A DNA stretch of 64,000 bases from an uncultured Christensenella sp. Its GTDB lineage: Bacteria; Bacillota; Clostridia; Christensenellales; Borkfalkiaceae. Positions 3,768 to 22,395 of this stretch are shown here, piece by piece (the first letter of the stretch is position 1; each line of letters opens with the position of its first letter). A program made the translations under genes and the position numbers. The notes under the pieces were generated by a model that saw only the letters and a program-made list of their open reading frames with translations, did no database searches and was not told the origin of the DNA. Location: positions 33,253 through 97,252 of the forward strand of contig CAJTYL010000008.1 of the NCBI GenBank assembly GCA_910583855.1, written 5' to 3'.

Positions 3768-3843
3768 AATTTATACCTCACTTTTTCCCCTACCCTCCCG
3801 ACGGTTCGGGAGGGCGGAGAGAATTGTGTTTCCTTAAAAAGCC

Positions 3844-6800
3844 TTATAAATCACTTTCTGCAACGTCATCATAGAAGCCGTCGTCGTCAGAAGATTTTCT
3901 GCGTTTGACGAGTATGATTACGAGTGCAATGATGATTGCCGCCAAAACTATCGCCGCAGCGATAATTAACCAAAGCTTCCAATCTTCTATGCTTGCGCCG
4001 ACCGTTGTGCCGGGAACTTCACCCTCGTTAGCGGGTTCGTTAATGGATACCGAACGGAGCGCGTTTTCTTCCGAGATTGCGAAGTTTTCGCCCTCAACCG
4101 TAACGAGTAAGCTGTGTCCGCCCACTGCGGTGAAGTCGCCGTCAACCGTTACGGTAACTTTGACTTTTTCGCCGTTAACGGTGATTTCGTAAACACCGTC
4201 GGATACTTTGCAACCGTCGTCAAGCGTTATGCCCTCTACCTTGACTACGGGCATATGAGCCGCGCCGTCATAGGTGTAGTTGAGGTTGCTTTCGTCGCCC
4301 CAATCGATATCGAGAACGTACTTGGTGATTTCGATAGCCACCGTGCGCGTGCTTGCCTTGTAGATGCTGTATCTTTGGTCTGCGTTTTCGTTAAGCGCGA
4401 AGATTACTTTGTAGTTGCCTACGGGAAGTCTGCCGCTTACTTCGTTGCCGTTTTCGTCAATGACTTTCGCCGTTACCCATTCAAGGAAGGTTTCCTTGGA
4501 AATTACGCGGTTAAGGTCTTCGTCGTAATTTGCATAGCCGCTTTCCAAAAGCGTCTTTGCAAAGTCTTCTGCGGTTTCGAAGCCGTAGGTTTCGGTTAAG
4601 GTCTTGCTGCCGTCAACCGTTACATAGAGGTAATATTCCGCGTAGCTTACCTTGACAAGCAAGCGGCCGTAAAGCGTTTCGTGGTTGTCAACTCTTATCA
4701 TAAAGTTGAACAAGTACTCGCCTTCTTCGGTCAAGCCTTCGGGGATATCGCCCGTGTATTGGTCGCTATCGGGAGCGTGGTCGTTTTCGTCAACAAGCTT
4801 GAAGTAAGCAGTAACCGCCGCGTCTTGATAGCCCGCAAGCTTCAAGAAGTCCTTGGTGTTGGTTACAAAATCGCTTACATAGCCGTCCGTTGAACCGAGT
4901 ACGCCGTACGCGTCGTAAACATAGCCGTCTTTCTCGTCGTAGTCGACGATGATTTCCGCTTTTTCTACGACAAGTTCGCCGTCGCCCTCGTTTACAACTT
5001 TAAGCGAATAGTTATCGTTGAAGTCTTCTTCGTTCCAGCCGACGTTCAAAGCGTATACGCCGTTTGCAAGGTAGTTGCCGTCGTCGTAGCTGCCTTCGAT
5101 GGTGAGCTTAATATTCAAGTCGTCGCCGTCTACGGGCTTATTGTCGCCGTAAGTCCAACCGTTGCCGAGGCCGAGAATTGCTTCAAGCTCGTCAAGGTTA
5201 ACGTCGCCGTAAGTAAACTGCAAGTCTTTAACGTTTACGGTAATTTCAAGCTTGTTAATCTTGAATGCTGTACCGTAGTTTTCGAACGTGTAGTTGCCGT
5301 CCGCCTTGATTACGTTGCCGTTTGCGTCAACGATTACCGCGAAGTAGCTGCCCGCGTTTACAGCCTCGCCGTCGATTACGGAGTATTCGCCGCTCTCTTC
5401 GTCGTAGGTTGCAAGCTTAACGGTAAGCTCGTGCTTTCTGCCGGTTGAGTCGTAGTAGTAAGCTTCGGGCAAGTTCGCGTTGCCGTTGTATGTGAAGTCC
5501 GCACCGCTTTCGCCGTCGCCGACCCAAACAAGCGCGCCTTCCGCGGGATTAACGGTAAGCTTACCGTTTACGCCCGTTACTTCGTAGTTGTTAAGATACT
5601 CGTTCAACCACGCCGCGTCGATATAAATTTTATATTCGCCGGGTACGGTGGTGTTGACGTACGCGCATCTGAACCACTGACTGATAACGTCTGCCAAAGC
5701 CGCCTTAACTTCGTCCGCTTCGTCCGCCAAAAGTCCTTCGAACGTTGCGAAGTCGGTGGTGAACTCGGGCGCGTCGGCGCCGTAGTCGAAGGTTTGGTCC
5801 TTCGCCGTTACTGTGAGCGCAACTTTGTTGATATTGAACTCGTATTCTGCGTTAACGAGCTTATAGTTGCCCGCCGCCGTGCCTTCGAGGCTGACTTTGA
5901 TTACATATTCGCCCGCTTCGGTGACTTTTTCGCCGTCGCCCGCTACCTTTACGCCGTTCTTGGTGATTTCGTAAACAACGGTAAGTCCGTCCTTTTCGGA
6001 AGCCGAAACGGTTATTTCGGGCTTAGGCGCGTGCTTGTTGCGGTCGTATGTTACGTCCTCCCAAGTGTATTTGACTTCGATTTCCTTTTGAGCGATTTCG
6101 AACTCGTAAGTCTTGGTTTCCTCGTCAAGCTCGTAGTTGGTTGTGTCAAGCGACGCCGTTGCTTGGTACTTCGTACCCGCGTTTGCGCTGTCGCCGTCTA
6201 CGGTTACTTCAAGCTCTATTTTGTTGCCCGCAACGTCGGTGTAGTACGCCTTGGGTTGCTGCTTTTCGCCGTTGTAGACAAGGGGTGTTTCATCCCACTC
6301 GACTGCGACTTTCTTAGCCGTTACTATTACCGTCACCGTCTTCATATCTTCGGGAACGGTGTAATTTTCATCACGGCAAGTTACGGTTACTTTGTAGGTC
6401 CCGACTTCGGTGATGACCGAAACGGGTTCGCCCGCCGCGTTTGTAATTGTGACGTTGAATTCAAGGTCCTTAACGTTCGAAGTAGGCGTGGGCATTATTT
6501 CGCCGCCGCTGTATTCGTAAGTAAAGGTCAAGCCGTCTTCGGACACTTGCGCGTTCTCGTCGGTCCACTTGAAGCCGCTTTCGGCAAGGTCTTTTGCAAG
6601 CACCTTGTAGTTTTTGGTAAATTCTTCCGCGAAGTCGTAGTTAACAAACGTATCCACTGCTTGCGCGGTGTGTTCGCCCACTTCTGCTAAACCGCCGCTT
6701 ACTTCTACGGGGATTGCATTGCCGTCCTTATCGAGGAGAAGCTGCAATTCGCCGTTTTCGTCCTTATAAGCAAGGTATGCGGTAGGAGCGATTGCCGTAT

Positions 6801-9800
6801 CGTAGTCTACATAATCCCACTCGAAGTTTACGGTGTCGTTCTCTTCGTATCCGCCTACGCCGTACCAAATTACATATACTGTCATAGGTTTGATAACGTA
6901 AGTTTTTGCCGAATCGTTCTCGTTTGCGAATTCGTAGTTACCGTCGCTTTGCATAAGCGTTAAGGTATGCGTACCCGCGTCGGTTTCGAAGCCCGTAACG
7001 GTAAGCTCTGCGCCGTTTTCGCCGTTCTCGTTTCTGATATAAGCCTTGGGGGTTATATCGTCGCCGTAAGTCCAAGTGTAAACGCCGTTCTCGTCAGCTT
7101 CCAATTCGCCGAAGTCCCAATTAACTTCTATGGTTGCTTTATTGATGTAATACTGCTGCGTTGCGCTTGCGCCGTCAGCCAAAACGTAGTCCTCGGACAA
7201 CTCTGCCGTAGCAGTGTACGCTTTGTCGCGGGCATTCGTTTCCGCGCCGTAAACGGTAAGCTCTATATCGTTGCCGTCTTCGTCCTTGAAGCGCTGCACT
7301 TCGTTGTTTTCATCGGTGTACGCAAGGTAAGCCTTGGGGGCGTGCTTGCTTCCGTCGTAAGTCCAGAAGTAAATATCCTTTTCTTCGTCGTGCTTAGCGT
7401 CGCCGAAATCCCAATCAATTGTTACGGTTTGCGCAGTGATAACGTATTCCATATCGGCGCTGAACGCGAAGCTGTCCGTCACGTCAAGCTCGCCTATTTT
7501 CGCCGACTTGATATAAGCCGTTACCGTGTGCGTGCCTACGGTTGAGGTTACGCCCGTATAGCCTACTTCGAACGTAACTTCGACAGCGTCGCCGCCTTCG
7601 CCAATCGTGTAGCTTATCGTAAGCGTAGGTGCGTGCGGGTTACCGTCGAATAACCAGAAGTATCCGTCCTTTTCCGCGTCGTAACCCGTATCGGACCATT
7701 CGAAGTCGTCCTCGGTAATGGTTATCTTTTCGATGACGAACTCGCACGATGCGTTTTCTTCCGCAACCGTATAGTTAGCGTTGATGAATTTGATTGTAAC
7801 TTTGTAAACGCCCGCCTTAACGTAACCGGTCACAACGTAGTCCTCGCCCTCGGTGAGTTCTGCGCCGGTGAGAGTAACTTCGGGTTTCTGCTCGGAGCCG
7901 TTGAATGTGACATTCAAGTTGCTCCACTCTGCTTCGAGTTCCTTTGCGTTAATACTAAAGGTGCAAGAAGGTACGGATTCGATATCGACGTATGCAGAGT
8001 AGTTGCCCGCGTTGATTGCCGTACCGCCGATTACCGTTACGGTGAGGTAAACTTTGTCGCCGCTTTCGTCTAAGTAGTAAGCCTTGGGCGCTTGACCGTT
8101 CTCGTCGCCGTTATAGGTGAACACAAGACCCGTGTTGCCGCCCTTGCCGTCCTCGTAAACGTGACCGTCGTCGTCCTCCCAATAAACTTGACCTATCTTG
8201 ACTTGAACGATTTCAAACGTTGTGGAAGCCGTTCCCGTAAGATAGAAGTTGTTGTGCGCCGTAAGGCTGCTGTTGAGAACCGCGTAAGCCGTGTGAACGC
8301 CGATTTCGGACGTTTTACCCGTTACAAGGAGTTCGAGAGTAATGAAGTCGAGAGTTATCTTCGCTGCGGGAGAGTGCTCTTTTCCGTCGTATACCCAATA
8401 CCAACCGTTGTCTGCGTCGCCCGAAGCTCCCGCGCCGATGAAATCCCAAACGATTTTGCCGGCGTCTATTCCGAGCTTGGAAACGGTGTATCTTTGGGTT
8501 GCGCCGTCAACGATATTGAAGTTATCGCCGACTATTGCTTTTGCAAGGTAATCGCCCGCGTTTACGTTGCCCTCTACGGTAACGTTTACGGTAGTGAAGT
8601 CAAACTCGCCTTCGCCCGTTGCGTAAGCGTAAGGCGCTTGGGCTTTACCGCTGTACACATAGGAGTACGTAGTGTTGCTGTCATACTGACCGTCTTGCCA
8701 ATTAATAACCACATCGAGTTTCTTTATCTCGTATGCGCAAGCAAAGTCCTCTTCCTTAATATCATAGACGGAGGAAGGTTTTACCCTTGCCGTGTACTTG
8801 CCCGCATCTGCGCCGATGCTGTTTGCGTTGAGCGCAAGGATTTCGTAATCGCCGTTTTCCCTAAGATATATAGGCGTAGGCGACTGAACGTTGCCGTTAT
8901 ACACGAAACCGCCGTCGGTGAGATATTGTTCAAGCGCAACGTATTCGTATTCGTTTATAAACACTACCCACGTTACGTCGATAGGGGTCTTGAATCCGCC
9001 GACCGACTTAATGAAGAAGGTGAGCGATTCATATTCCGCTCCGTCTGCGAATTCGTAGTTTGCCGCGTCCGCCGTAGAAAGTCTTGCGTATGCGGTGTAG
9101 CCGATTTGCTCGTCTACTACCCATTCGCCTTCGTAGCTCTTGGAGTAGCTAACCACAAGTTCAAGCGTTCCGTTTGCAATCGCTACAAATCCGGGACCCT
9201 CTGCGCCGACTACTTTACCGAAGTCGAACTCTGCCGTGTCGCCCGTTTCGTATGAGTTCTTGAACGCATCGGTCCAAACTACGGAAGTTATCACAGCCTT
9301 TCTGACTTCGTAAACTTGCGAAGCGCTGCCGTCGATATAGAAGTTTGCGTTGAACGCGGTATTCGCAAGCTCAACCGCAGCCGTTGCGGAGTTAACGCCC
9401 GTAAGCGCCGTCTGCGCGTCGGTGCGCACGAGGTCGAGCGAGGAGATTATAACGCCGTCTTTGTAAACGTCGCCGTTCAATTCAACCTTCGCTTCAACCG
9501 AGTGCTCTTCGCCGTCGTAATACCAGAAGTAAACGTCCTTATCTTGGTCGTAGTTGAAGTTCTTTCCGCCCGTCCAAGTTATGTTTACGCCAAGCTTTTC
9601 GATGGTGAAACGCTGCGTTGTGGTAGTTTCGTCAAGAATGAAGTTACCGTCGTTGTTGGTAAGCGTCAAACGCACAATGTATTTGCCCGCGTTGACGGGT
9701 TGTTGCTTGCTGTAAACGCCTATGTTGCCGTTTTCCGCAACCGGAGCGTATTCAACGGTGTACGCCTCGTTAAGCGCTTCGCCCGTGATAGGGTTGATTA

Positions 9801-12800
9801 TGCTTGCAACGGGCGCTTTGCCTTGACCGTTGAACGTCCAAGCGTAGGTGCCGTCGTCGTTGCCTATCCAATCGACCGCAACGGTCTTTTGGGTTATAAC
9901 GATTTGGCAAGTATAAGTTTTGTCAAGTACATAGTTGTAGCAGTTTGCGGGAAGTTTTACGGTTGCGGTGTAATAGCCGACTGCCGTAGGAGCTTCCGCA
10001 AGCTCCTTGCCCGAACGGGACGCGTAGGTGACGTAAGGTTCTACGGTGTCGCCCGTGATTACGCCGCTGAGCACAAAGTTCACGCCGTGCTTTTCGCTGT
10101 CGTATTCGAACGTGAATTCGTCGCCCTCGTTGCCGTCCTCGTCCGTCCATACAAGCGAGAGGGTTATGCCGTTAATCTTATACTGTACGGAGGTGTTCGA
10201 AAGCACGATGTTTTTATCCGCCGTCTTTAACCCTACCGTCAATGTATAAGCGCCCGCATAGGACTGTGCCGCCGCGTAGCTTGAACCGCCGCTCCATGCA
10301 TAGCCGTAAGAAAGGTCAACGCCCGCAAGCTCGTTGCTAACGCCGCCGAGTACCGCTACGGGTGCATGAACAAGCCCGTCGTAGTTCCAATAGTAACCGT
10401 CCGTCGCGTTACCGAGAGCGTCGCCGAAGTTCCACTCTACATCTATGTATCGCGTTGTGATTGAGAAGTTCAATACGGGGTTCTCGTAAAGGTCCTCGTC
10501 AACCGTGAATTCGTAGTCGCCTACGTCCTTCATCGTTTCGGTGAATACCTTAACGGGAACGTATCCGTCATCGTATACGCAAGCGCGGATATTGTAAGTT
10601 GCTCCCGTATAGATAAGGGTGTTTACCGTCAAATCGAACCAAGTTCTGCCTTCGTCCGTCGAGTACTGCCAATAAAGCGTTGCCGGCAATACCTCGAATG
10701 TGAGCGAAGGATTGATATATTCTTCGCTGTTAATAACGAACTTGTAAGAACCTATTCCTTTGAAATTCAACGCGTCGATAGCTTCGCCTGCGCCGTTGGT
10801 TGCCCAAGTGAATGCAACGGTGTTGAATTCGCTGTTAAGCGCGCGGATAGCGTAGCTTTCACCCGCCTTGTATCTAAGCGAATAGTAAGGCGCGTCAATG
10901 CTTACCCAAGTTTTTCCGCCGTCCTTGCTGAGCTGCCAAATAAGAGAAGTTTGCGAATAGTCGTTATCCTTCAAAACCGCTTCGCCGTCTTCAAGTCCTA
11001 CCATATAATCGGTATCGTCAGAGAAGAATACCGTTTCGGGACGAAGGTTGGGGTTGTAGGCGGTGTTCTTTTCCGCAAAGCCCAACGTGAATTTCTTTTT
11101 GGAGGGGTCTGCCATAGTTACGCCGAGCCAAGCAATCATACCGTTGACGGCAAGCATACCCGTTACGGTAATAACTTGGTCTGCCGCGAGGTAAATATTG
11201 CTTTCCGCTCCGTTTGCGGTGTTGCCCGAAACTATGGGCGAGCCGCTTACGTTTAAGGTTGCCCCCTCAACGTTAGAAACATAGATGCCGCCGCCATTCA
11301 CCGCAGCCCTATTGCCGGTAATTTTACCGCCGCTAAGGTTCATTGTGGATTTGGTGTAGATATACACGCCGCCGCCGTCGGATTCAGTAGAGTTGCCCGA
11401 AATTTCGCCGCCCGTCATGTTGAACACAACTTCGTTACCCGCTAAATAAACACCGCCGCCAAAACCGGCTGAGGTATTGTTCGAAATTTTTCCGCCGGTC
11501 AAAGTGATTGTACTTGCATAAGCGCGAAGACCGCCACCCGACTCTGTTGCGTTGTTATCGGTAATCTCGCCGCCGCTCATTTCAAACGTTCCGCCGTTAA
11601 CATATACGCCGCCACCGTAGCTTGCTGTGTTAGCGCTGATAACACCGCCCGTAATTATGACCGTATTTGCTGCGGTATGAGAGTACACACCGCCGCCGAG
11701 AGTATCAGCCTTGTTTGCGGTAATTACACCGCCGTTCATGGTAAAGGAGCCGCCGTTGGCAAGCATAATACCCGCACCATCGCCGTTTTTAGTATTATCT
11801 GAAAGCTGAGTACCGTCGTAAACAGCGATATTACCACTTATTATGCCGTCGTTCATTTGAACAGTGCCGCCGTTGTTATAAATACCGCCGCCGTTTACTG
11901 CTTCATTGCCGCTGATTGCGCCGTCGTTGATAATTAACTCGCCGCCGTTTTCGACATGAACGCCGCCGCCGTTTACCGCAGTGTTGCCGCTGATTTCGCC
12001 GCCGCTTATTTCAGCTGTGCCGAAAACGCACATACCGCCGCCCTTGTTTGAATCGTTGCCGCTGATTTCGCCGCCGTTCATTTCAAACAAGCCGTATTCG
12101 GTAATTAAAGCACCGCCGCCGTTGACCGTTGCAGTATTGTTTGCAATCGTTCCGTCATTCAATATGAACGTACCGCTAGTAAGGTATATACCACCACCGG
12201 CAGAACCGTTGTTGCCCGTAATAGAGCCGCCGTTCATTGTAAAGACGCCGGAAGCCCCAATCACCACGCCCGCGCCGCTTGCTCCGATATTAGCATCGTT
12301 TGCGGTTCCGCCGATTGTGCCGCCCGTCATTTCAAACGTGCCGCCGTTAACATACACGCCGCCACCGCCGTTTGCGCCTACGCTGTTACCGGATATTTTA
12401 CCGCCGGTCATTATAACTTTGCCATAATTGCAATAAACGCCGCCGCCCCATGTGCCGGTATTGTAACCAATAGTGCCACCCGTCATTTCAAACGTGCTGC
12501 CGTTAACATACACGCCCGCGCCGTTTACCGCAGTGTTGGCAAAGGTTGTAGCCGTGCCGCCGATGTAACCGCCTTTTGCGATAAACTCGCCGCCCGCCAC
12601 ATACGCGCCGCCGCCGTTTTCGCTTGCGGTGTTGTTGCGGATATAGCCGCCGCTTAACTTAACCGTACCGTTGCTGTAAACGCCCGCGCCGTTAGTTGCT
12701 TCGTTTGCGTAGCCCGTACCGCCGATTGCGCCGCCCGTCATATTTAACGTGCCGCCTTCTTCAACGTAAACGCCCGCGCCCTCGTCGGCAGAGTTGCCGC

Positions 12801-15800: not shown

Positions 15801-18800
15801 AACCGCCGCCGTTGCCGCTTGCGGTATTATTATTAATAGAGTTTAATAAGTTTTCATTATCAAAGGTGAAATCAAGCGTAATTCTTCCGCCACGCACATA
15901 TACGCCCGCGCCGTTTAATGCTGTGTTGTAGGAGATTACTCCGCCGTTCATTTCGAAGTTGCCGCTGTTGTCAACGTATACGCCGCCGCCGTACGATTGA
16001 GCGGTGTTCCCGCTATCTTCGGCGCCGATAATACCGCTTTCGAACACAAACGTGCCGTCCGAGATGAACACGCCGCCGCCGTTTTCGGCTTCGTTCAAAG
16101 TAATTTGGCTATCGCTGTCTCGAAGCACAAACTCGCCGTTGCCGTCGATATATACGCCGCCGCCGTAGCTTGCCGTGTTTTCGGTTATTACGGTATTTTT
16201 CTTTATGGTAAAGATACCGCCCGCAACATACACGCCGCCGCCGTTTTCCGCGTTACCGCCCTTAATGGTAGACGTTACGCGAGAGTCGAACACAAGGGTT
16301 CCTTCCACACGCATTACGCTTCCCGAAGTTCCGCTTCTGTCCAAAGTAAAGCCGTTACCGTCGAATAAGATATCCGCGCTTACGGGCACAAGAATGGTTC
16401 CGTCGTTCGTAAAGCCTATGCCTTCGCCGAAAGAGCTGTTTTTAACCGTCCAATCGAAGTAAAGGACGAAAAGTTCTTGCGTGCCGTTGTTCAAGCTGGC
16501 TTGAACTGTTTCGTTCCAAGCCAAAGCAACGTCGAATCTTAAAACGATTTCTTCGTTAATGTAGTTTAACGTAAGTCCGCGATTGTCGGACACGAAATAT
16601 TTCGCAATGTCCGCTTCGCTATGTCCCGCGGTTGTAAAACCGTCGGTAAGCACGAAATCTTCTTGGGTAATACAACCGCTTATGCCTATCTTCGCGCCGT
16701 CGCTGAGCTTAGCGGAGAAAGTAATTGCGCCTTCGACGTCCACATAAACGTTATTTTCGAATTCGCGGTAAGTATTACCGTATATATAAGCCGTGCCGCC
16801 GAGTTTGAACTCGCCGTCTCTGACCCAAACTCCGTTGCCGTAGGGGGTTGTGGCAGAGTTTTCGGTAATTCTACCCGCAGTCATTTCGAAAGTGCCGCCG
16901 CCTAAATAGACGCCGCCGCCTTTATTGGTAGAGGTGTTGCCGCTTATCACGCCGCCCGTCATTTTAAACGTTTTGCCGGTAAATACGGCGCCGCCGTTTG
17001 AAGTTGCCTTGTTATTGACAATTTCGCCGCCCGCCATAATAAACGTGCCGCCATTGTGCACGCCGCCCGCAACGTCCGAAGCGGTATTATCGGATATAGT
17101 GCCGTCGTTCAATGTATACGTTCCGTCAGCTTGAACATTTACGCCGCCGCCGCTTACGCCCTTGTTATGGACAATTTCGCCGCCGGTTTGGGTAAAGGTT
17201 CCGCTGAAAACGCATAAGCCGCCGCCGAATGCCGCAGTATTGTATGATATGGTACCCGCCGACATAGTACCCGTGCCGGTACCGTCTATAAGTACCGCGC
17301 CGTGACTTTGGGCTGTGTTGCCGTTACCCTCTCCGCCGATGACGCCGCCGGACATCTCGAATGAGCCCGCACGCACGGCAACCGCTCCGCCGTGGGTAGC
17401 GCTGTTGCTTGTTATTGCGCCGTCGGACATAACGAATTTACCGCCGCTCACATATACGCCGCCGCCGTAGCTAGCGGAGTTGTTGGTAATTATAACGTTA
17501 TTGTTGTTTAAAGTGAACGTACCGCCCGTAACCGCAACTGCACCGCCGCCGTAAACGCCGCTTGTAGCCGCTTTGTTGTAGGAGATGGCGCCGCCCGTGG
17601 GTGTAAACGTGCCGCTAGACATATATACGCCGCCGCCATCGCGCAATGCGGTGTTTGCAGCAGCGGCGCTGCCGCCTATCGTACCGCCCGTCATATTAAA
17701 TGTACCGCTGTGATAAGCCACCCCGCCGCCGTTTACCGCAGAGTTATTTGTAATAGTACCCGCGGAGAAGTTGAACGTGCCCGTCCATAAAAACACACCG
17801 CCGCCGGTACCGGTACTTGAATTGTACTTGATAGCCGCGTTTGCACCATTCATCGTAAACGTGCCGTTTGAGCTTATTTCAACGCCGGCGCCGCTTGACG
17901 AAGTGTTTGCATAGGAAGCGTTCGGTCCGCCTATTGTACCGCCCGACATAGTTACGGTACTGTTATGATATACGAATATGCCCGCGCCGCCCACGCTTGT
18001 AGTTGTTGTAACGGTTTTGTTGGCGTAAATCTGACCGCCCGAGATATTTACCTTTACCGCCGCCGTAGTTGCGGTTGAACTTGCCGCACAGATACCGCCG
18101 CCGTAAACGGCCGTATTGTATGCAACGATGGCTGTGCCGGACATGTTAAGGGTTGAACCGGTGTATGCGTATATGCCGCCGCCCCAACTTGTCGCCGTGT
18201 TATATGAAATAGTACCGCCCGAGAATGTTGCCGCGGTAGTGCTTGCCAAGAATAATCCCGCGCCGCTGTTTGCCGTGTTGCCCGCGCCGCCGCCGCCTAT
18301 GGTGCCGCCCGTCATTTTGAACGTTGCAGTGCCGACCACATACACGCCGCCGCCGTTGGTTCTTACAGAGTTTCCTCTGATTACGCCGGCGTTCATATTG
18401 AAGGTGCCGCCGCCCACATACACGCCGCCGCCGTTGGAACCAACGGTGGTGCTGCCGGTATTGGTTGCGGTATTATACTGAATGGCGCCGCCATTCATAT
18501 TCAACGTGCCGCCGTCCATATGTATGCCGCCGCCGTTTGTTACTGTTGTTGCCGTTGCCGACGTTGCTTGGTTCCTTGAAACGTAACCGTTGGCGCCGAT
18601 AGTCATGGTACCGGCAACCATATACACGCCGCCGCCGAGGGGCGCCTTGTTTGCGTAAGCGTTATCGCTTGCACCGCCTATATAACCGCTTGTAAGATTA
18701 AAAGTTCCGCCGGCAATGAATACGCCGCCGCCCACATTTGCCGCAGTGCATGCAATTACAGATGTTGCGCCCGGACTGGTTCCGCCGTTTATTGTATATG

Positions 18801-21800
18801 TTGCACCGACGTTTATCCAAACGCCGCCGCCGTTTACGGTTGCCGTATTATAATGAATTCCGCCCAAGGTGTGGGTGAGCGTACCGGTGTACACACATAC
18901 GCCGCCGCCGTTTTTGGCTTGGTTATAAGTGATATTGGAGGACATAGTGCAAGTGCCCGTAGTCTGAATAAGAACGCCGCCGCCGTATTCCGACGCCGTA
19001 TTTTTATTGGCTGTGCTGCCTCCGATATTGCCGCCCGTAAGCGCAAATTGTGCAGAGCCCATAACAGCTACGCCCGCACCGTTGGTTGAAGAGTTTGTAG
19101 CTATAGTACCGGCAGACATGGCAATTTTTGTGCTGTTGGTAAGAAACACGCCGCCGCCGTGCGACGTAGCCTTATTACTGTTAATTAACGCGTTTGCATT
19201 ATTAATCGTAAACGTACCGGCATTTACAAACACGCCGCCGCCGTTTGAAGTCGCCTTGTTATTGGTTATTTTACCGGCAGAAAAAGTATAGCTTGCATTC
19301 AAATACAAACCGCCGCCGTTTGCCGCGGTGTTGCCGCCGCCGCCGGAACTGCTTATGTAACCGATACAGCTGTTGGCTTGCATTTTAAACGTACCGCCGT
19401 TATAATACACGCCTCCGCCGTTTGCCGTTGCGGTGTTGGAGTGTATCCAAGAATACCCCATATTGAAGGTTCCGCCCGTAATATACACGCCGCCGCCGTT
19501 TTTTGCTGTGTTGTTGCGCAACGCAGTGCCGGTACCGTTTAAAACATATGTACCGCCGCTTATATATACGCCGCCGCCGTTTTCGCTTGCAGTATTATAA
19601 TAAGTTACTCCGTTTGCCGTAGAGCCCGAAGCGATAGCTATACCCTCTGTAAACGAACCGCTTGCTACCGCTATGCCGCCGCCGTTTTTTGCTGTGTTGT
19701 AAGAAATACCGCCGCCGGTAAAAGTAGACGCACCCGTAGAACCTTGATACACGCCGCCGCCGCTTCCCGTTGCAGTATTTTTATTTGCTGTACTGCCGCC
19801 GCCGATAGTACCGGCAGACATATGAAAGACGCCCGAACTTACAGTCGCCACGCCGCCGCCGTTTACTGCGGTATTCTTAATTATCAACGCATTTGCGTTA
19901 TTCATTGTCAGCGTACCGTTTTCCACGCAAATGCCGCCGCCGTTTGAAGTCGCGGTGTTGCCCGTTATGGTGCCGCCCGACAAAGTAAGATTGGCATACA
20001 TATAAATGGCGCCGCCGCTTACTGAAGCCCGGTTACCCGAAAAGGTGCCGCCCGAAATGGTATGCGTACCGGTCGTGCCGTTATAGAAAATAGCGCCGCC
20101 GTGGGTTCCGCTGTTGTTTGAAATTGTGCCGCCGGATATCCTTGTTGTTGCAGCACCCTGTGCATATACCGCGCCCGCCCATTTTGTAGCGGTGTTATGG
20201 TCGATAATACCGCTTGTCATGGTGAATTTAGAAGCATTTACACCTACGCCGGCACCGCTGCCGCTTGATGTATTGTACTTGATGTTACCGCCGGACAACG
20301 TGAATTCACCGCCATTGGTTACATATACGCCACCACCAGCACCAGCGCTATTAGCATAGGTGGAATCACTGCCGCCGATAGTACCGCCGGTCATATTGAA
20401 CGTGCCGCTATTATAAACACCGCCGCCGTTGTTTATAGCGTCGTTATGGTTAATATAACCGCCCGACATATTAAACGTGCTGCTATTATAAACGCCGCCG
20501 CCGTAAGCCGCTGTGTTGTGGTAAGAACTATAGCCTATATAACCGTTTGACATTGTAAACGTGCCGCTATTATAAACGCCGCCGCCGCCGTTTTTTGCTG
20601 TGTTGCCGTCTATATAACCGCCCGACATATTAAACGTGCCGTTACTATAAACATACAAGCCGCCGCCGTAGCTTTTCGCAGTGTTGACATCAATTTCACC
20701 GCCGGTTTTAGTAAAGGTTCCGTTGAGAACGCATAAGCCGCCGCCGTAATCCGCTGTGTTGCCCGAACCCGAAGTACCTTCCTTACCAATATAACCGGAA
20801 GACATTGTAAAAGTGCCGTAGCCCACATACACGCCGCCGCCGTCATTTGTTGCAGTGTTTGTTAATATATGAGCAGAAGTGCTGGTTATTCTAAATTGGT
20901 TGGTTTTGCTATCCGAGTTACCGCCCATAGCAACGCCGCCGCCATTTCTTGACGAGGTGTTACCGGCAATAATTGCAGAACCTTTCATCTCGAACGTGGC
21001 GTCCCACATATAGACACCGCCGCCGTCATAAGTCGCCGTGTTTGCAGCGTTGCTACCGGTGGAATTTCGTCCGATAACGCCAGCGGACATAGTGAACGCA
21101 GCTTTATACAAGTTTACGCCGCCGCCGTAACGTGCCGTATTGGAATAGATATAACCGCCCGTCATTGTAAACGTGCCGCTGCTCGAAACATACACACCGC
21201 CGCCGCCGTAGTTGACGTAAATTTCAGTAGTAACAACCTTATTGCTATATATATTGCCGCCCGACATATTAAACGTGCCGTTATTATAAACGCCGCCGCC
21301 TTGGGTGGTTGCGGTATTGTTGTAAATACTGCCGCCCGACATATTAAACGTGCCGTTGCTCGAAACATACACACCGCCGCCATAAGTCGAAGTGTTCTCA
21401 TAAATACTGCCGCCCGACATATTAAACGTGCCGCCGCTGACGTTTACTGCGCAAGCAGTGCTGTTGTGTATAAGCCCGCCGCCCATATAGACGCTGCCGC
21501 CGGCATTAATTTGGAAAGCCTTCATAGCAATGCTCGAAACGCTGTAAAAGTTAATTTGATTTGACGGATTGCTTACACAAAAATTAATTCTACCGCCATT
21601 ATTAACAGTAAATGCTGTAAGGGGGCTGTAAACAAATATATATGTAGCAGAAGAAACAGTAGCGTAAATGTTAAGGGTACCGCTTACGCTTATTGACCCC
21701 CCAGCCTGAAAAAGAAGCGAATCTGAAATAGCAATATTCAACGTTATACCCGCGGGTACCGATAAAGCAGTATTAACGGTTTTATTCGAACTACTATCCG

Positions 21801-22095
21801 ATATAGCTATCGTATTGCCCGAGGTTGCAACCGCCGTGCTCCATTGGTTAATTCCGGTATAAGTTGCCGTTGCAGTGGCTTCGATTTCGGGGTTTTCTAT
21901 TGTGCCGTCCCCGTTTGAATTGCCGCCGACTATTGCGGAGGACGCGTCTTTTTCGGGCGCGGTAATTTCCGCGGACGAATTCGCCCCCGTTAAGTCGTTT
22001 GTAGAAAGTCCAAATAACGCTATAGCTGCGCTTATAAAAAGCGTTGCTATCAGTATAATTAATATACTCAGCTTACCGTATCGTGACTTTTTCAT
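3844..22095 (-). CDS. Giant (6083 aa) membrane-anchored surface protein / putative fibrillar adhesin: N-terminal signal-anchor, three head plus beta-helix cassettes, Ig/MBG-like repeat stalk, C-terminal TM helix with acidic tail
   Basis: Single uninterrupted 18252-nt ORF in the track. The RBS context AAGTGAGGTATGAATTATG is nearly identical to that of the neighbouring giant gene. The N-terminus MKKSRYGKLSILIILIATLFISAAIALFG is hydrophobic. It has massive GGGVY/GTFxMSGG repeats. The C-terminus is WKLWLIIAAAIVLAAIIIALVIILVKRRKSSDDDGFYDDVAESDL, with no LPXTG motif. Confidence 0.93.
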   Translation of the reverse strand: MKKSRYGKLSILIILIATLFISAAIALFGLSTNDLTGANSSAEITAPEKDASSAIVGGNSNGDGTIENPEIEATATATYTGINQWSTAVATSGNTIAISDSSSNKTVNTALSVPAGITLNIAISDSLLFQAGGSISVSGTLNIYATVSSATYIFVYSPLTAFTVNNGGRINFCVSNPSNQINFYSVSSIAMKAFQINAGGSVYMGGGLIHNSTACAVNVSGGTFNMSGGSIYENTSTYGGGVYVSSNGTFNMSGGSIYNNTATTQGGGVYNNGTFNMSGGNIYSNKVVTTEIYVNYGGGGVYVSSSGTFTMTGGYIYSNTARYGGGVNLYKAAFTMSAGVIGRNSTGSNAANTATYDGGGVYMWDATFEMKGSAIIAGNTSSRNGGGVAMGGNSDSKTNQFRITSTSAHILTNTATNDGGGVYVGYGTFTMSSGYIGKEGTSGSGNTADYGGGLCVLNGTFTKTGGEIDVNTAKSYGGGLYVYSNGTFNMSGGYIDGNTAKNGGGGVYNSGTFTMSNGYIGYSSYHNTAAYGGGVYNSSTFNMSGGYINHNDAINNGGGVYNSGTFNMTGGTIGGSDSTYANSAGAGGGVYVTNGGEFTLSGGNIKYNTSSGSGAGVGVNASKFTMTSGIIDHNTATKWAGAVYAQGAATTRISGGTISNNSGTHGGAIFYNGTTGTHTISGGTFSGNRASVSGGAIYMYANLTLSGGTITGNTATSNGGGICVENGTLTMNNANALIIKNTAVNGGGVATVSSGVFHMSAGTIGGGSTANKNTATGSGGGVYQGSTGASTFTGGGISYNTAKNGGGIAVASGSFTEGIAIASGSTANGVTYYNTASENGGGVYISGGTYVLNGTGTALRNNTAKNGGGVYITGGTFNMGYSWIHSNTATANGGGVYYNGGTFKMQANSCIGYISSSGGGGNTAANGGGLYLNASYTFSAGKITNNKATSNGGGVFVNAGTFTINNANALINSNKATSHGGGVFLTNSTKIAMSAGTIATNSSTNGAGVAVMGSAQFALTGGNIGGSTANKNTASEYGGGVLIQTTGTCTMSSNITYNQAKNGGGVCVYTGTLTHTLGGIHYNTATVNGGGVWINVGATYTINGGTSPGATSVIACTAANVGGGVFIAGGTFNLTSGYIGGASDNAYANKAPLGGGVYMVAGTMTIGANGYVSRNQATSATATTVTNGGGIHMDGGTLNMNGGAIQYNTATNTGSTTVGSNGGGVYVGGGTFNMNAGVIRGNSVRTNGGGVYVVGTATFKMTGGTIGGGGAGNTANSGAGLFLASTTAATFSGGTISYNTATSWGGGIYAYTGSTLNMSGTAIVAYNTAVYGGGICAASSTATTAAVKVNISGGQIYANKTVTTTTSVGGAGIFVYHNSTVTMSGGTIGGPNASYANTSSSGAGVEISSNGTFTMNGANAAIKYNSSTGTGGGVFLWTGTFNFSAGTITNNSAVNGGGVAYHSGTFNMTGGTIGGSAAAANTALRDGGGVYMSSGTFTPTGGAISYNKAATSGVYGGGAVAVTGGTFTLNNNNVIITNNSASYGGGVYVSGGKFVMSDGAITSNSATHGGAVAVRAGSFEMSGGVIGGEGNGNTAQSHGAVLIDGTGTGTMSAGTISYNTAAFGGGLCVFSGTFTQTGGEIVHNKGVSGGGVNVQADGTYTLNDGTISDNTASDVAGGVHNGGTFIMAGGEIVNNKATSNGGAVFTGKTFKMTGGVISGNTSTNKGGGVYLGGGTFEMTAGRITENSATTPYGNGVWVRDGEFKLGGTAYIYGNTYREFENNVYVDVEGAITFSAKLSDGAKIGISGCITQEDFVLTDGFTTAGHSEADIAKYFVSDNRGLTLNYINEEIVLRFDVALAWNETVQASLNNGTQELFVLYFDWTVKNSSFGEGIGFTNDGTILVPVSADILFDGNGFTLDRSGTSGSVMRVEGTLVFDSRVTSTIKGGNAENGGGVYVAGGIFTIKKNTVITENTASYGGGVYIDGNGEFVLRDSDSQITLNEAENGGGVFISDGTFVFESGIIGAEDSGNTAQSYGGGVYVDNSGNFEMNGGVISYNTALNGAGVYVRGGRITLDFTFDNENLLNSINNNTASGNGGGLYVESGNVDFVNGGILLNTAENGGGVYIAGGAVTLDGGELTVIGYNIATNGGGVYMSGGRLVMQSGLVASNEAVNGAGIYMTGAATQLTIAGGAIGGSYEGTDLPNVASGKAASVYVDGGTFTLTGDGVISTNIPQEDSDAVGNVYLAGGTFNMTGGEISGSTFANGGALYMTGGNFKITDGSIKNNTATENGGALYMTGGTAAVAGGEITDNTANRGGAAYIAGGTMTVSAGLIGRNQANGAGGVFVADGATLRMTGGTIGGSEANKNTSTYDGGGVAAVAGGIFEMSGGEISYNTANRGAGVWTAGTFEMSGGEISHNTATNGGGVANMGTARIISGKINNNTAENGGGVYLFEEGKYTMSGGEISGNEAGYGGGVYNLSGTFELNGGSISGNTATNNGGGVYNNDKFIVSDGEIVTNTAANGGGVYSIGEFTLSGGKLSNNTATLGGGVYNIGNGTFAMTDGNIVENTAGSGAGVYVNASTVEISGGNISENRATDATETAGGGGLFVVNGNLTVSGTAKITKNTSARYGGGLRIDGSTDTSTVEISGGSISENGATIGGGAYLTGSFAHLSLNGSVMVSENTATTSGGAVAIYGGAKVEVSGDAFLTYNTASANGGAAYVTGAGSALTVSEKGALTHNSANYGGAVYVTASGAFTMADGSLAYNEASTSGGAVYVNGGTFNLEDGEIIGNSAVEYGGAIYVAAGSTSVFTMSGGAIGGEDTFTNTSARGGGMYVAGGAVTISSGSISGNTATVNGGGVYLNAGTFSVKGNPIISGNKLNDSDSNLYLYNGKTIKIVGKLTDGASIGLTGKDKITEDYTTNGNGETEKAYFFGDVLGTVVAIVNGEIYLQVSLKDAWNAAVQASLDNNGNPITFVLAEAWRAENGSFGEGVGFTDDGALYLPSGAYIVLNLNNYSIDRNLSTITATGSVFYVKGTLEISGTTGIITGGKSEQGGGVHIEEGGLFKMEVAYIQQNEATQGGGVYVESGARFELAEGAIRGNSADEGAGVYVEEGGTLNMTGGAIGGTGYANEATNGAGVYSNGTVKLSGGYIRNNTASENGGGAYVAGGEFIAKGGYIGGTATTFANTAVNGAGVYVNGSTFEMTGGTIGYNTGTWGGGVYCNYGKVIMTGGKISGNSVGANGGGGVYVNGGTFEMTGGTIGGTANDANIGASGAGVVIGASGVFTMNGGSITGNNGSAGGGIYLTSGTFILNDGTIANNTATVNGGGALITEYGLFEMNGGEISGNDSNKGGGMCVFGTAEISGGEISGNTAVNGGGVHVENGGELIINDGAISGNEAVNGGGIYNNGGTVQMNDGIISGNIAVYDGTQLSDNTKNGDGAGIMLANGGSFTMNGGVITANKADTLGGGVYSHTAANTVIITGGVISANTASYGGGVYVNGGTFEMSGGEITDNNATESGGGLRAYASTITLTGGKISNNTSAGFGGGVYLAGNEVVFNMTGGEISGNSTESDGGGVYIYTKSTMNLSGGKITGNRAAVNGGGIYVSNVEGATLNVSGSPIVSGNTANGAESNIYLAADQVITVTGMLAVNGMIAWLGVTMADPSKKKFTLGFAEKNTAYNPNLRPETVFFSDDTDYMVGLEDGEAVLKDNDYSQTSLIWQLSKDGGKTWVSIDAPYYSLRYKAGESYAIRALNSEFNTVAFTWATNGAGEAIDALNFKGIGSYKFVINSEEYINPSLTFEVLPATLYWQYSTDEGRTWFDLTVNTLIYTGATYNIRACVYDDGYVPVKVFTETMKDVGDYEFTVDEDLYENPVLNFSITTRYIDVEWNFGDALGNATDGYYWNYDGLVHAPVAVLGGVSNELAGVDLSYGYAWSGGSSYAAAQSYAGAYTLTVGLKTADKNIVLSNTSVQYKINGITLSLVWTDEDGNEGDEFTFEYDSEKHGVNFVLSGVITGDTVEPYVTYASRSGKELAEAPTAVGYYTATVKLPANCYNYVLDKTYTCQIVITQKTVAVDWIGNDDGTYAWTFNGQGKAPVASIINPITGEALNEAYTVEYAPVAENGNIGVYSKQQPVNAGKYIVRLTLTNNDGNFILDETTTTQRFTIEKLGVNITWTGGKNFNYDQDKDVYFWYYDGEEHSVEAKVELNGDVYKDGVIISSLDLVRTDAQTALTGVNSATAAVELANTAFNANFYIDGSASQVYEVRKAVITSVVWTDAFKNSYETGDTAEFDFGKVVGAEGPGFVAIANGTLELVVSYSKSYEGEWVVDEQIGYTAYARLSTADAANYEFADGAEYESLTFFIKSVGGFKTPIDVTWVVFINEYEYVALEQYLTDGGFVYNGNVQSPTPIYLRENGDYEILALNANSIGADAGKYTARVKPSSVYDIKEEDFACAYEIKKLDVVINWQDGQYDSNTTYSYVYSGKAQAPYAYATGEGEFDFTTVNVTVEGNVNAGDYLAKAIVGDNFNIVDGATQRYTVSKLGIDAGKIVWDFIGAGASGDADNGWYWVYDGKEHSPAAKITLDFITLELLVTGKTSEIGVHTAYAVLNSSLTAHNNFYLTGTASTTFEIVQVKIGQVYWEDDDGHVYEDGKGGNTGLVFTYNGDENGQAPKAYYLDESGDKVYLTVTVIGGTAINAGNYSAYVDIESVPSCTFSINAKELEAEWSNLNVTFNGSEQKPEVTLTGAELTEGEDYVVTGYVKAGVYKVTIKFINANYTVAEENASCEFVIEKITITEDDFEWSDTGYDAEKDGYFWLFDGNPHAPTLTISYTIGEGGDAVEVTFEVGYTGVTSTVGTHTVTAYIKSAKIGELDVTDSFAFSADMEYVITAQTVTIDWDFGDAKHDEEKDIYFWTYDGSKHAPKAYLAYTDENNEVQRFKDEDGNDIELTVYGAETNARDKAYTATAELSEDYVLADGASATQQYYINKATIEVNWDFGELEADENGVYTWTYGDDITPKAYIRNENGENGAELTVTGFETDAGTHTLTLMQSDGNYEFANENDSAKTYVIKPMTVYVIWYGVGGYEENDTVNFEWDYVDYDTAIAPTAYLAYKDENGELQLLLDKDGNAIPVEVSGGLAEVGEHTAQAVDTFVNYDFAEEFTKNYKVLAKDLAESGFKWTDENAQVSEDGLTFTYEYSGGEIMPTPTSNVKDLEFNVTITNAAGEPVSVITEVGTYKVTVTCRDENYTVPEDMKTVTVIVTAKKVAVEWDETPLVYNGEKQQPKAYYTDVAGNKIELEVTVDGDSANAGTKYQATASLDTTNYELDEETKTYEFEIAQKEIEVKYTWEDVTYDRNKHAPKPEITVSASEKDGLTVVYEITKNGVKVAGDGEKVTEAGEYVIKVSLEGTAAGNYKLVNAEYEFNINKVALTVTAKDQTFDYGADAPEFTTDFATFEGLLADEADEVKAALADVISQWFRCAYVNTTVPGEYKIYIDAAWLNEYLNNYEVTGVNGKLTVNPAEGALVWVGDGESGADFTYNGNANLPEAYYYDSTGRKHELTVKLATYDEESGEYSVIDGEAVNAGSYFAVIVDANGNVIKADGNYTFENYGTAFKINKLEITVNVKDLQFTYGDVNLDELEAILGLGNGWTYGDNKPVDGDDLNIKLTIEGSYDDGNYLANGVYALNVGWNEEDFNDNYSLKVVNEGDGELVVEKAEIIVDYDEKDGYVYDAYGVLGSTDGYVSDFVTNTKDFLKLAGYQDAAVTAYFKLVDENDHAPDSDQYTGDIPEGLTEEGEYLFNFMIRVDNHETLYGRLLVKVSYAEYYLYVTVDGSKTLTETYGFETAEDFAKTLLESGYANYDEDLNRVISKETFLEWVTAKVIDENGNEVSGRLPVGNYKVIFALNENADQRYSIYKASTRTVAIEITKYVLDIDWGDESNLNYTYDGAAHMPVVKVEGITLDDGCKVSDGVYEITVNGEKVKVTVTVDGDFTAVGGHSLLVTVEGENFAISEENALRSVSINEPANEGEVPGTTVGASIEDWKLWLIIAAAIVLAAIIIALVIILVKRRKSSDDDGFYDDVAESDL
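3907..3981 (-). other. C-terminal transmembrane anchor of the giant protein, followed by a 20-aa basic-then-acidic cytoplasmic tail (3847-3906)
   Basis: A 25-residue hydrophobic run, WKLWLIIAAAIVLAAIIIALVIILV, is followed by KRRKSSDDDGFYDDVAESDL and the stop. Confidence 0.8.
4040..10950 (-). repeat. Stalk of roughly two dozen tandem ~85-95-aa Ig/MBG-like repeats
   Basis: Recurrent pattern W.....F.Y.G....P.A.......G.....L.V.......AG.Y.A.......NY.L.......F.I.KA. One unit (LTVTAKDQTFDYGADAPEFT...YKIYIDAAWLNEYLNNYEVTGVNGKLTVNPA) resembles the MBG (YGX-type) domain. The domain count is estimated from length, not counted. Confidence 0.75.
11230..12960 (-). repeat. Beta-helix cassette 3 (preceded by head domain AWNAAVQASL...FGEGVGFTDDG...LNLNNYSIDR at ~12960-13230)
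   Basis: AWNAAVQASL is encoded at about 13200-13230. Rung repeats run to GGGIYVSNVEGATLNVSGSPIVSGNTANGAESNIYLAADQVITVTG (about 11170-11290). Confidence 0.85.
13450..16270 (-). repeat. Beta-helix cassette 2 (preceded by head domain AWNETVQASL...FGEGIGFTNDG...FDGNGFTLDR at ~16270-16525)
   Basis: AWNETVQASL is encoded at about 16497-16526. Rungs such as GGGVYIDGNGEFVL and GGGVFISDGTFVFESG follow. The cap is SNLYLYNGKTIKIVGKLTDGASIGLTG near 13370-13450. Confidence 0.85.
16750..21480 (-). repeat. Beta-helix cassette 1: long array of ~22-25-aa rungs (GGGVYxxxGTFxMxGGxIxxNTA)
   Basis: Translation from about aa 205 to 1780 is almost entirely rung repeats. It ends with the cap NNVYVDVEGAITFSAKLSDGAKIGISG (KLSDGAKIGIS encoded near 16680-16712). 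Boundaries are approximate. Confidence 0.85.
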
Positions 22096-22395
22096 AATTC
22101 ATACCTCACTTGACCCGCCGCATTTTTTGCGTGGGCTTTTGTTTTTTGAATTTTGATTTTTGTTTTGTTTTTGCCGCCTTTTGCACACAAAGCGGCGATT
22201 TTACCACACTTTACCACCATTATTTCACCACCCCGCGCTTGCGGGACAAAACAAAAAGGTGTGCACCTTTTCGGTCCACACCATTTCATAAAAATTAGCG
22301 TATCAAAAAATTATTACAAAACAGACACTGCGCCCACTTAGGGCAGTGTACGATTCCGCAATATGGCTATGTAAATGAAATAATGTGGTATGCTA

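Follow-up and report, generated by a model that had tools for sequence, protein, structure and literature searches.

Polymorphic membrane proteins (Pmps) of Chlamydia carry paired GGA[ILV]/FxxN motifs, and AlphaFold models place these pairs in the buried core of beta-helix rungs (Debrine et al., PMC10715098). Pmp-like motifs, including GGGM variants, are also found in other bacteria, in archaea (a Methanobrevibacter protein) and in Trichomonas (PMC10715098). In the adhesin-like proteins (ALPs) of gut methanogens, between one and seven right-handed beta-helix domains, all capped by an N-terminal alpha-helix, are combined with Ig-like stalks and with transmembrane anchors at one or both termini (PMC11532034). 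Here we describe a protein of related design, encoded in a 64,000-nt stretch of DNA from an uncultured Christensenella sp. (contig CAJTYL010000008.1; the whole stretch is referred to as the window). Its gene, the giant gene, lies at 3844..22095 on the minus strand, and the 6,083-residue product, the giant protein, consists of three serial cassettes of head, rungs and cap, a long stalk of small repeats and a C-terminal transmembrane helix. We consider it likely that this is a surface protein, fibrillar and adhesin-like, of a Christensenella-like Clostridium from the mouse gut, with distal segments that are swapped by recombination.

The giant protein shares with the Pmps a paired motif every ~25 aa, here in the form GGG[VI]/IxxN, and a predicted buried right-handed beta-helix core. 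Like them it is polymorphic between strains and, by prediction, surface-exposed. Unlike them it has a single transmembrane anchor, a Bacillota host, three capped helices in series and a long stalk, and a single helix holds up to 56 rungs compared with 9-25 in Pmps. Pfam scans of the whole protein and of 250-aa pieces gave no match to the Pmp middle domain (PF07548). The autotransporter beta-barrel (PF03797) had no Pfam match either; the C-terminus is made of stalk repeats, a transmembrane helix and a 20-aa tail. An autotransporter was rejected because there is no barrel, and a toxin-delivery protein of the CdiA/Rhs type was rejected because the C-terminus is an anchor, without a toxin.

In overall design the closest described proteins are the ALPs of Methanobrevibacter smithii, Methanosphaera stadtmanae and M. 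ruminantium, with which we compare the giant protein by description (PMC11532034). It differs from these in its bacterial host, in an MBG-like stalk in place of the archaeal 'ABD' domains, and in its conserved cap-to-head junction, transmembrane helix and DDGF tail. No methanogen protein is among the 120 best cassette homologs listed, and no direct comparison with ALPs was made. RbtA (PDB 9CDU/9CDV) is a cell-surface protein of Acinetobacter baumannii with an N-terminal beta-helix domain (PMC12643943). Its profile similarity to the cassette head and first rungs is significant, but RbtA has 617 aa, a single short helix, a diderm host and no stalk array. It is named as a rhombosortase target, a GlyGly-CTERM substrate.

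A second set of precedents concerns the stalk and the use of long rods as adhesive surfaces. CmbA (Lar_0958) is a surface protein of a gut Bacillota that mediates mucus binding (PMC5339304) and is anchored to the cell wall (PMC13339910). CmbA and other mucus adhesins of the MBG/MucBP type share with the giant protein tandem ~80-100-aa all-beta repeats; CmbA lacks a beta-helix region, and the repeats of the giant protein score below Pfam thresholds and are probably a stalk. The CmbA anchor is of the LPXTG type. Long beta-helix rods serve as adhesive surfaces in Fusobacterium Fap2 (PMC12397386) and in EtpA (PMC10284417). Unlike the giant protein, these two and E. coli Ag43 depend on outer-membrane secretion systems (type V or two-partner). 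Staphylococcus Ebh, a megadalton Gram-positive surface protein, ends in a C-terminal transmembrane helix instead of LPXTG; its repeats are helical, not beta-helix. None of these four carries several capped helices serially on an MBG-like stalk. Proteins of 10,000-30,000 aa have been reported from gut Clostridia (bioRxiv 10.1101/2023.11.21.568195), and the size of the giant protein alone is therefore unremarkable. The giant protein fits the right-handed beta-helix class of surface proteins and the fibrillar-adhesin design, but does not belong to the Pmp/autotransporter family. We see it as a very large example of the 'adhesin-like' beta-helix proteins that are widespread, and uncharacterised, in gut anaerobes. 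Precedents exist for each of its components and for the overall design, and current concepts are unchallenged.

Cassettes, stalk and anchor

The reading frame begins with ATG, and its sole stop is terminal (3844-3846). The remaining two frames of the same strand contain 308 and 320 stops, and the chance of 6,083 stop-free codons at the composition of the giant gene is ~1e-127. Plus-strand open reading frames (ORFs) inside the gene, such as 8092..9255, are shadows of it.

We built a hidden Markov model (HMM) of the rung from 70 units of the giant protein itself (consensus GGGVYVNGGTFTMSGGEISGNTATN). It gave 112 matches, all in aa 198-3628 (56/34/22 per cassette), and zero in the 2,380-aa stalk. 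About 104 of the 112 matches have E<0.01, 93 survive a stricter filter, and the commonest spacing is 25-27 aa. The rungs contain ~20-22% Gly, 9-13% Thr and 9-10% Asn. A cap HMM finds three caps in the giant protein and one in its downstream neighbour, while a head HMM finds heads 2 and 3 and, again, one head in the neighbour. Head 1 (aa ~77-190, with INQWSTAVATSG at aa 82) is too divergent to score with this model and retains only a W..AV..-type start. The motifs AWN..VQ (aa 1859 and 2957), SFGEG (aa 1888 and 2987) and KL[ST]DGA[KS]IG (aa 1796 and 2900) mark the repeated parts, and the two cap-to-head junctions of the giant protein are 41% identical.

The rungs belong to a recognised repeat family. 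PF02415 (Chlam_PMP) matches 16 of 24 pieces of 250 aa, with a best E of 2.8e-7; these short pieces were used since Pfam scans of 1,900-2,433-aa pieces return nothing in the beta-helix region, a filter effect. NCBIfam TIGR01376 (POMP_repeat) scores 16.7 bits, just over its cutoff of 15. Paired variant motifs of the form GG[GA][VILM] / [FILV]xxN number 76, and the strict forms GGA[ILV] and FxxN number 19 and 16. Pfam Beta_helix (PF13229) has no match on the giant protein, and NosD (PF05048) matches one 250-aa piece weakly (E 0.031).

Of 8,000 candidates scored in a homology search with cassette 3, 5,677 reach E<=1e-5; they come from Clostridia, Treponema, Bacteroidales and others, and the search gave proteins of up to ~1,315 aa only. 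Many of these homologs carry PF13229, PF05048, PF02415 or PF09479, with carriers of PF13229 or PF05048 at 30-44% identity, and many are named 'right-handed parallel beta-helix repeat-containing protein'. Across their alignment the final strands of the head (GxVIxVxxGGxLTL....GxITG) and the cap (NVxL....I...G.L.....IGV) are family-wide. We used a 25-row homolog alignment for a cassette 3 profile and for an AlphaFold2 (AF2) model of aa 2850-3700, which has a mean predicted local distance difference test score (pLDDT) of 85.4, above 90 over most of the cassette, and a predicted template-modelling score (pTM) of 0.83. In the model, KDAWNAAVQASLDNN coincides exactly with an alpha-helix, after which short strands run in triads as far as the cap. 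The cassette is thus predicted to be a helix-capped right-handed parallel beta-helix whose rungs of ~22-27 aa each contribute three short strands. Over the head and first rungs, the cassette profile matches the beta-helix domain solved for A. baumannii RbtA (E 4e-6). A Foldseek search of the PDB with the model returned, below significance, mostly beta-helix adhesins and lyases: Ag43 and EtpA at the top, SPATE passengers, PL6 lyases, RbtA and tapirin. A phmmer search of the PDB with cassette 2 gave spurious antibody matches only. We also observed that the cassette profile matches chain U2 of PDB 7W5Z, a 3,634-aa 'putative transmembrane protein' (E 7.7e-8, residues 2982-3177), which is a candidate Pmp-like repeat region in a solved structure.

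The stalk is ~2,300 aa long and includes 19 repeats of one kind, type A (17 contiguous and two further); ~300 aa of it are unassigned. When its 25 units are scanned singly for the MBG superfamily (PF17883, PF18676, PF18887) and other Pfam domains, MBG_3 is matched three times, MBG twice and YDG once, at E-values from 5.8e-5 (the best, to MBG_3) to 8e-4. The type-A consensus scores 20.1 bits against MBG_3, under the cutoff of 25, and hhalign finds no similarity between the type-A profile and the MBG_2 domain of the giant protein itself. The type-A profile does match PDB 4NG0, the mucus-adhesin repeat of L. reuteri CmbA/Lar_0958, at E 1.1e-4, and the 4NG0 sequence is a Pfam MBG domain at 61 bits. 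An AF2 model of a single type-A repeat, made from a single-repeat alignment of 28 repeats, is all-beta with eight strands (pLDDT 91.6). Foldseek against the PDB found nothing significant for this model; its weak neighbours are a SusCD-complex subunit (5FQ7 chain H), InlK and Sap S-layer domains.

Only two hydrophobic segments are present in the giant protein, at aa 6-33 and aa 6036-6068. The first thirty-three residues are possibly a Sec signal peptide, with a candidate cleavage site between AIA and L, or else an uncleaved signal anchor. There is no LPXTG motif near the C-terminus, and the sole LPXTG-like string in the whole protein is SPLTA at aa 157; an LPXTG sortase substrate was rejected on this ground. 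The C-terminal module, consisting of (G)LPxW, a transmembrane helix, RRK and a cytoplasmic DD(D)GF[YG][DE] acidic tail (3847-3981 on the minus strand, aa 6039-6083), recurs elsewhere. It is kept in the relatives P0127, P0131, P0136, P0138, P0140, P0150, P0163, P0222, P0234, P0246 and P0254, with 24-53% identity to that of the giant protein and 86% in P0127. The W, G and F are invariant in the 11-sequence alignment of the module. NCBIfam GG_III-CTERM scores 13.6 bits against it, below the cutoff of 22. The module looks like a sorting or partner-binding signal.

An earlier prediction for this DNA, made from its letters alone (the original prediction), had described most of this anatomy correctly. 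It described a single ORF, which its one terminal stop and the ~310 stops per alternative frame bear out. Its three cassettes of head, rungs and cap are recovered by the HMMs with a divergent head 1, its estimate of more than a hundred rungs was about right, and its likening of the rungs to Pmp repeats agrees with PF02415, with TIGR01376 and with the GGG[VI] and IxxN variants. The N-terminal signal or anchor, the single C-terminal transmembrane helix and the KRRK-acidic tail without LPXTG were confirmed by hydrophobicity and motif search. The stalk was described as ~2300 aa of Ig/MBG-like repeats. The length holds and the label is a fair one, given the profile match to 4NG0 and one MBG_2 domain above cutoff, but type-A membership is marginal and the array is heterogeneous, with MBG_2 and Asp-box-like units among type-A repeats of 77-103 aa. 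The term 'passenger-like' has to be dropped, as beta-barrel and Pmp middle domain are absent in Pfam scans.

Relatives and allelic mosaicism

A profile of the cap-to-head junction, searched against 1.84 billion cluster representatives, matches 887 proteins at E<=1e-3, of which 238 also pass E<=1e-10; many of the 887 span the whole junction internally. The architecture recurs in dozens of relatives with lengths of 4,000-8,000 aa. Members that carry a name are without exception 'hypothetical protein [Clostridia bacterium]', from metagenome-assembled genomes (MAGs). P0121-P0126 and P0128 (7,100-8,000 aa) have 10-13 heads spaced 250-350 aa apart and 16-19 stalk repeats. P0136 (5,155 aa) has three heads, 19 stalk repeats and a transmembrane helix; P0138 (3,706 aa) has one scoring head, with the same stalk count and anchor. 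In P0127 (5,975 aa) we find two scoring heads and three caps, 17 stalk repeats, and a transmembrane helix and tail almost identical to those of the giant protein.

The anchor varies within this set. P0121-P0124, P0126, P0129 and P0135 (7,000-8,000 aa, 6-13 heads) lack a C-terminal transmembrane helix and have a dockerin-like end, YLSVLGDLxGDGxV...D......Y, which we recognised by eye. P0125 and P0128 have no transmembrane-like end. The dockerin-like ends suggest that fibres of this design can also be attached in another, cohesin-type way; no dockerin repeat is present at the C-terminus of the giant protein. The multi-head relatives have long basic N-regions followed by a transmembrane-like segment.

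The original prediction proposed comparing cassette number across relatives, and the number of heads indeed ranges from 1 to 13 per protein. We regard the head-helix-cap unit as a genuine mobile module, in view of relatives that reach 13 heads. Heads 2 and 3 of the giant protein are 60% and 71% identical to their positional equivalents in P0127, and 46% identical to each other. The three-cassette state is therefore old, and a recent tandem duplication of cassettes was rejected. The proposed origin by fusion of three stand-alone genes is one possibility of two: the head comparison fits fusion and ancient internal duplication alike. The degree of novelty implied for the protein was also too high, given that Pmp-like beta-helices outside Chlamydia (PMC10715098) and the combination of tandem capped beta-helices, stalk and transmembrane anchor in ALPs (PMC11532034) had been described.

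Other copies of the locus inform on both assembly and variation. The adjacent SNF symporter protein is found in identical form on 24 contigs, including one from MAG GCA_948899105.1 with a called 6,083-residue product. Three Logan contigs (L002-L004; ERR3199548, ERR3199639 and ERR3199522) match the first 230 codons exactly and then end. This point is the start of the rung region and of a hypervariable block, and the ends are probably graph breaks from strain variation. Within the giant gene, DNA self-similarity is at best 80.5% over 113 nt, and at most ~70% over >250 nt. Collapse or expansion of repeats is therefore unlikely, and repeat misassembly was rejected.

A further copy is an ortholog in the MAG 'uncultured Christensenella sp. 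MGBC104814' of the mouse catalogue (L005, CAJTKX010000002.1), with a 99%-identical locus and a frame that is open for >5,080 codons. This locus supports the Bacillota host named in the original prediction, the lineage being Bacillota; Clostridia; Christensenellales. Where the two genes can be aligned, they differ 75, 57 and 133 times at first, second and third codon positions, with 99 synonymous and 119 non-synonymous codon changes, and we read the giant gene as a coding sequence under moderate constraint. Protein identity is 90% at aa 1-100, 86-100% at aa 1000-3200 and 97-100% beyond aa 3400; two hypervariable blocks interrupt it (Table 1). The MGBC104814 allele has unique variable blocks of its own, and so is not simply the same strain. 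A diversity-generating retroelement was rejected because the variable blocks differ by replacement and indels, not by point substitutions.

At the DNA level, in 600-nt bins, the two genomes are 73-81% identical over the flanking NrdG, dUTPase, ROK and Rex genes (27071-24689). Identity climbs from 84% to 98.7% within the SNF gene and is 93-100% over most of the giant gene, so that the comparison at 6258-27071 contains an island of near-identity. The pattern suggests that diverged genomes have recently exchanged the locus, or else that the MAG contigs are chimeric. P0127 is 85-92% identical to the giant protein at aa 1000-1750 only, and 47-69% elsewhere. On these alignments the locus reads as a recombination-shaped mosaic in which segment replacement is concentrated in the distal helix, and it has apparently been exchanged between otherwise quite diverged genomes.

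Start region and neighbouring genes

Coordinates of all features are given in Table 1. The initiation context AGTGAGGTAT(G/A)AATTATGAAAAA is almost the same in the giant gene (22093-22110) and in the downstream paralog (3765-3782), both on the minus strand. A hairpin of the terminator type, followed by a T-run, lies at 22252-22273 (-), 3' of the SNF symporter gene and ~160 nt before the ATG of the giant gene. This implies that the giant gene may have its own promoter, in the A-rich leader. The hairpin between the giant gene and the downstream paralog, which has no T-run, may affect RNA stability, act in attenuation or terminate transcription weakly.

The downstream paralog has a head of the form AAWNTAVQES...SFGTGTGF and six full-length matches to the rung HMM. 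With one head and one cap by HMM, it bears out the statement that the head-helix-cap unit occurs once in the neighbouring gene. No head, rung, cap or stalk module was found in other reading frames of the window beyond these two genes. The genes upstream are unrelated: the adjacent SNF symporter, then Rex, a ROK kinase, dUTPase and NrdG/NrdD.

Table 1. Features of the giant gene and its surroundings, listed in the direction of transcription; coordinates are positions in the window
Feature	Coordinates (strand)	Residues	Description
Ribosome-binding site	22104..22109 (-)		GTGAGG, 8 nt upstream of the ATG of the giant gene; context AGTGAGGTATRAATTATGAAAAA; read from the sequence
N-terminal segment	21997..22095 (-)	1-33	basic n-region MKKSRYGK and hydrophobic stretch
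Cassette 1	16531..21867 (-)	77-1855	divergent head (INQWSTAVATSG), 56 rungs, cap with KLSDGAKIG
Hypervariable distal block	19096..21798 (-)	~100-1000	23-60% identity to the MGBC104814 ortholog; ~200 aa longer in the giant protein
Cassette 2	13237..16530 (-)	1856-2953	head AWNETVQASL...SFGEGIGF, 34 rungs, cap with KLTDGASIG
Cassette 3	10996..13236 (-)	2954-3700	head with N-terminal capping alpha-helix, 22 rungs, cap, linker
Second hypervariable block	11896..12498 (-)	~3200-3400	38-60% identity to the MGBC104814 ortholog
Two ~90-aa repeats	10459..10995 (-)	3701-3879	between cap 3 and main stalk; Asp-box-like SxDxGxTW (SKDGGKTW, STDEGRTW); Pfam BNR matches weak only
17 contiguous type-A repeats	5818..10458 (-)	3880-5426	77-103 aa each; consensus W..(F/Y)xYDG...P...G.Y....NY; all-beta, distantly MBG-like
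MBG_2 (YGX-type) domain	5548..5817 (-)	5427-5516	34.1 bits against a Pfam cutoff of 25; 6.1e-11 when scanned singly
Membrane-proximal stalk	4033..5547 (-)	5517-6021	type-A repeats at aa 5516-5617 and 5924-6021, second MBG_2-like unit at ~5617-5712, ~210 aa unassigned
C-terminal transmembrane helix	3907..3981 (-)	6039-6063	WKLWLIIAAAIVLAAIIIALVIILV
Cytoplasmic tail	3847..3906 (-)	6064-6083	KRRKSSDDDGFYDDVAESDL; RRK...DDGF[YG][DE] kept in divergent relatives
Intergenic hairpin	3793..3814 (-)		perfect 8-bp GC-rich hairpin CCCTCCCG-aaccgt-CGGGAGGG in the 76-nt spacer between giant gene and downstream paralog; without T-run; read from the sequence
Downstream paralogous gene	3..3767 (-)	at least 1,255	ATG at 3767, runs off the window start; signal peptide, one head, rungs, cap, 9 stalk repeats

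Proposed function and its alternatives

The sequence has the features of a fibrillar adhesin: a tandem stalk array (~2,300 aa), a predicted export signal and a predicted surface anchor. We propose that the N-terminal signal would direct Sec export of the ectodomain, that the C-terminal helix would act as a stop-transfer anchor, and that the KRRK-acidic tail would stay in the cytoplasm by the positive-inside rule. Some 25 small domains, all-beta and either MBG-like or related, would then form a membrane-proximal stalk that crosses the wall and reaches outward. The distal end would consist of three serial right-handed parallel beta-helix rods, each with an N-terminal helix cap (the head) and a C-terminal cap. 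Since a beta-helix rises 0.48 nm per rung, ~104-112 rungs would give ~50 nm of rod, and the stalk would be about as long again or longer. The buried GGG[VI]/IxxN motifs may serve as scaffold, with binding specificity in surface strands and loops, especially those of the distal cassette 1, and with distal segments exchanged between alleles through recombination. The ligand of such an adhesin may be host mucus or glycans, or partner microbes within flocs.

Several observations weigh against this reading. No recognised ligand-binding (lectin-type) domain was found in Pfam and NCBIfam scans of the giant protein, and the MBG assignment of the 19 type-A stalk repeats is marginal. Without cleavage of the N-terminal segment, the giant protein would be tethered at both ends. 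As to the fold, the cassette 3 model has no significant Foldseek match in the PDB (best E 0.05), and AF2 gives confident but unrealistic beta-solenoids for some repeat sequences (PMC11795689). A match to an experimental structure was sought for this reason, and RbtA provides it.

The missing ligand-binding domain could also mean that the fibre is no specific adhesin but a coat or spacer on the surface. As a long brush it might give shape to the envelope or floc matrix, hold off phages, host factors or other cells, or be a scaffold. The extremely regular, low-complexity rungs, with few long loops in cassettes 2-3, are in keeping with such a role, as is the dockerin-like module that ends some relatives and suggests scaffold-type assembly. 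However, hypervariable blocks are replaced by recombination within a near-identical allele, which is more typical of selection for specificity or for immune or phage evasion, and a proven mucus adhesin has repeats similar to those of the stalk. We therefore regard a coat or spacer as unlikely. It is still less likely that the protein is a giant surface loop held at both termini by an uncleaved N-terminal signal anchor. The N-terminal hydrophobic stretch is long (~22 aa), ALPs anchored in the membrane at both termini have been reported (PMC11532034), and the basic N-regions of multi-head relatives lead into a transmembrane-like segment; yet a plausible signal-peptidase site follows a 14-aa core, and allelic variability is greatest just past the N-terminus, as would fit an exposed distal tip.

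The cassettes might also be stalk-borne carbohydrate-active domains, pectate/alginate-lyase-like or glycosidase-like, with host or dietary polysaccharide as their substrate. The weak Foldseek matches include PL6 alginate lyases, AlgE4 and further enzymes of the beta-helix fold, one piece is weakly NosD, and homologs carry PF13229 and PF05048. Those structural matches are non-significant (E >=0.13, TM 0.13-0.2) and generic to the fold, however, and no lyase or hydrolase family is matched in Pfam or NCBIfam. Among repeat families Chlam_PMP alone reaches significance, and its role is structural or adhesive. Rods of 22-56 near-identical rungs show no obvious catalytic groove; we think an enzyme quite improbable. 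That the gene is a pseudogene, or a collapsed, expanded or chimeric product of repeat assembly, is scarcely credible. The source is a short-read MAG, three independent Logan contigs end after codon 230, and cassette 1 in the orthologous MAG shows a difference of ~200 aa. Against these points, the DNA repeats are too diverged to collapse, 18.2 kb stay open against ~310 stops per alternative frame, an independent MAG is open over >5,080 codons with codon-position-biased differences, and dozens of relatives have the same architecture. A fibrillar, adhesin-like surface protein remains the reading that we prefer.

The new points are descriptive ones. The proteins form a large bacterial family, so far unannotated, in which the cap-to-head junction and a cytoplasmic DDGF tail motif are conserved, the number of cassettes varies, anchors are of alternative kinds and alleles are mosaic. 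Because Pfam scans of long pieces miss the beta-helix, thousands of related 'hypothetical proteins' in gut MAGs are probably under-annotated. The cap-to-head junction, the alternative anchors and the allelic replacement of the tip make this a tractable case in which to follow the diversification of giant surface proteins.

Christensenellaceae are heritable, health-associated gut bacteria, and the giant gene and its paralogous neighbour are candidates for contact between cells or between cells and mucus. Christensenella spp. flocculate and house M. smithii in their flocs, for which no adhesin has been identified (PMC7002349), and the giant locus is thus a reasonable candidate. More tentatively, these proteins may constitute an undescribed bacterial 'poly-beta-helix' fibre family of ~900 representatives, probably in Christensenellales or other gut Clostridia, defined by reiterated cassettes, an MBG-like stalk and interchangeable anchors (dockerin-like, or a transmembrane helix with RRK...DDGF[YG][DE]). 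In such a family, recombination might retool specificity across genomes with 73-81%-identical flanks, and the fibres could be a basis of Christensenella flocs and of the association with methanogens.

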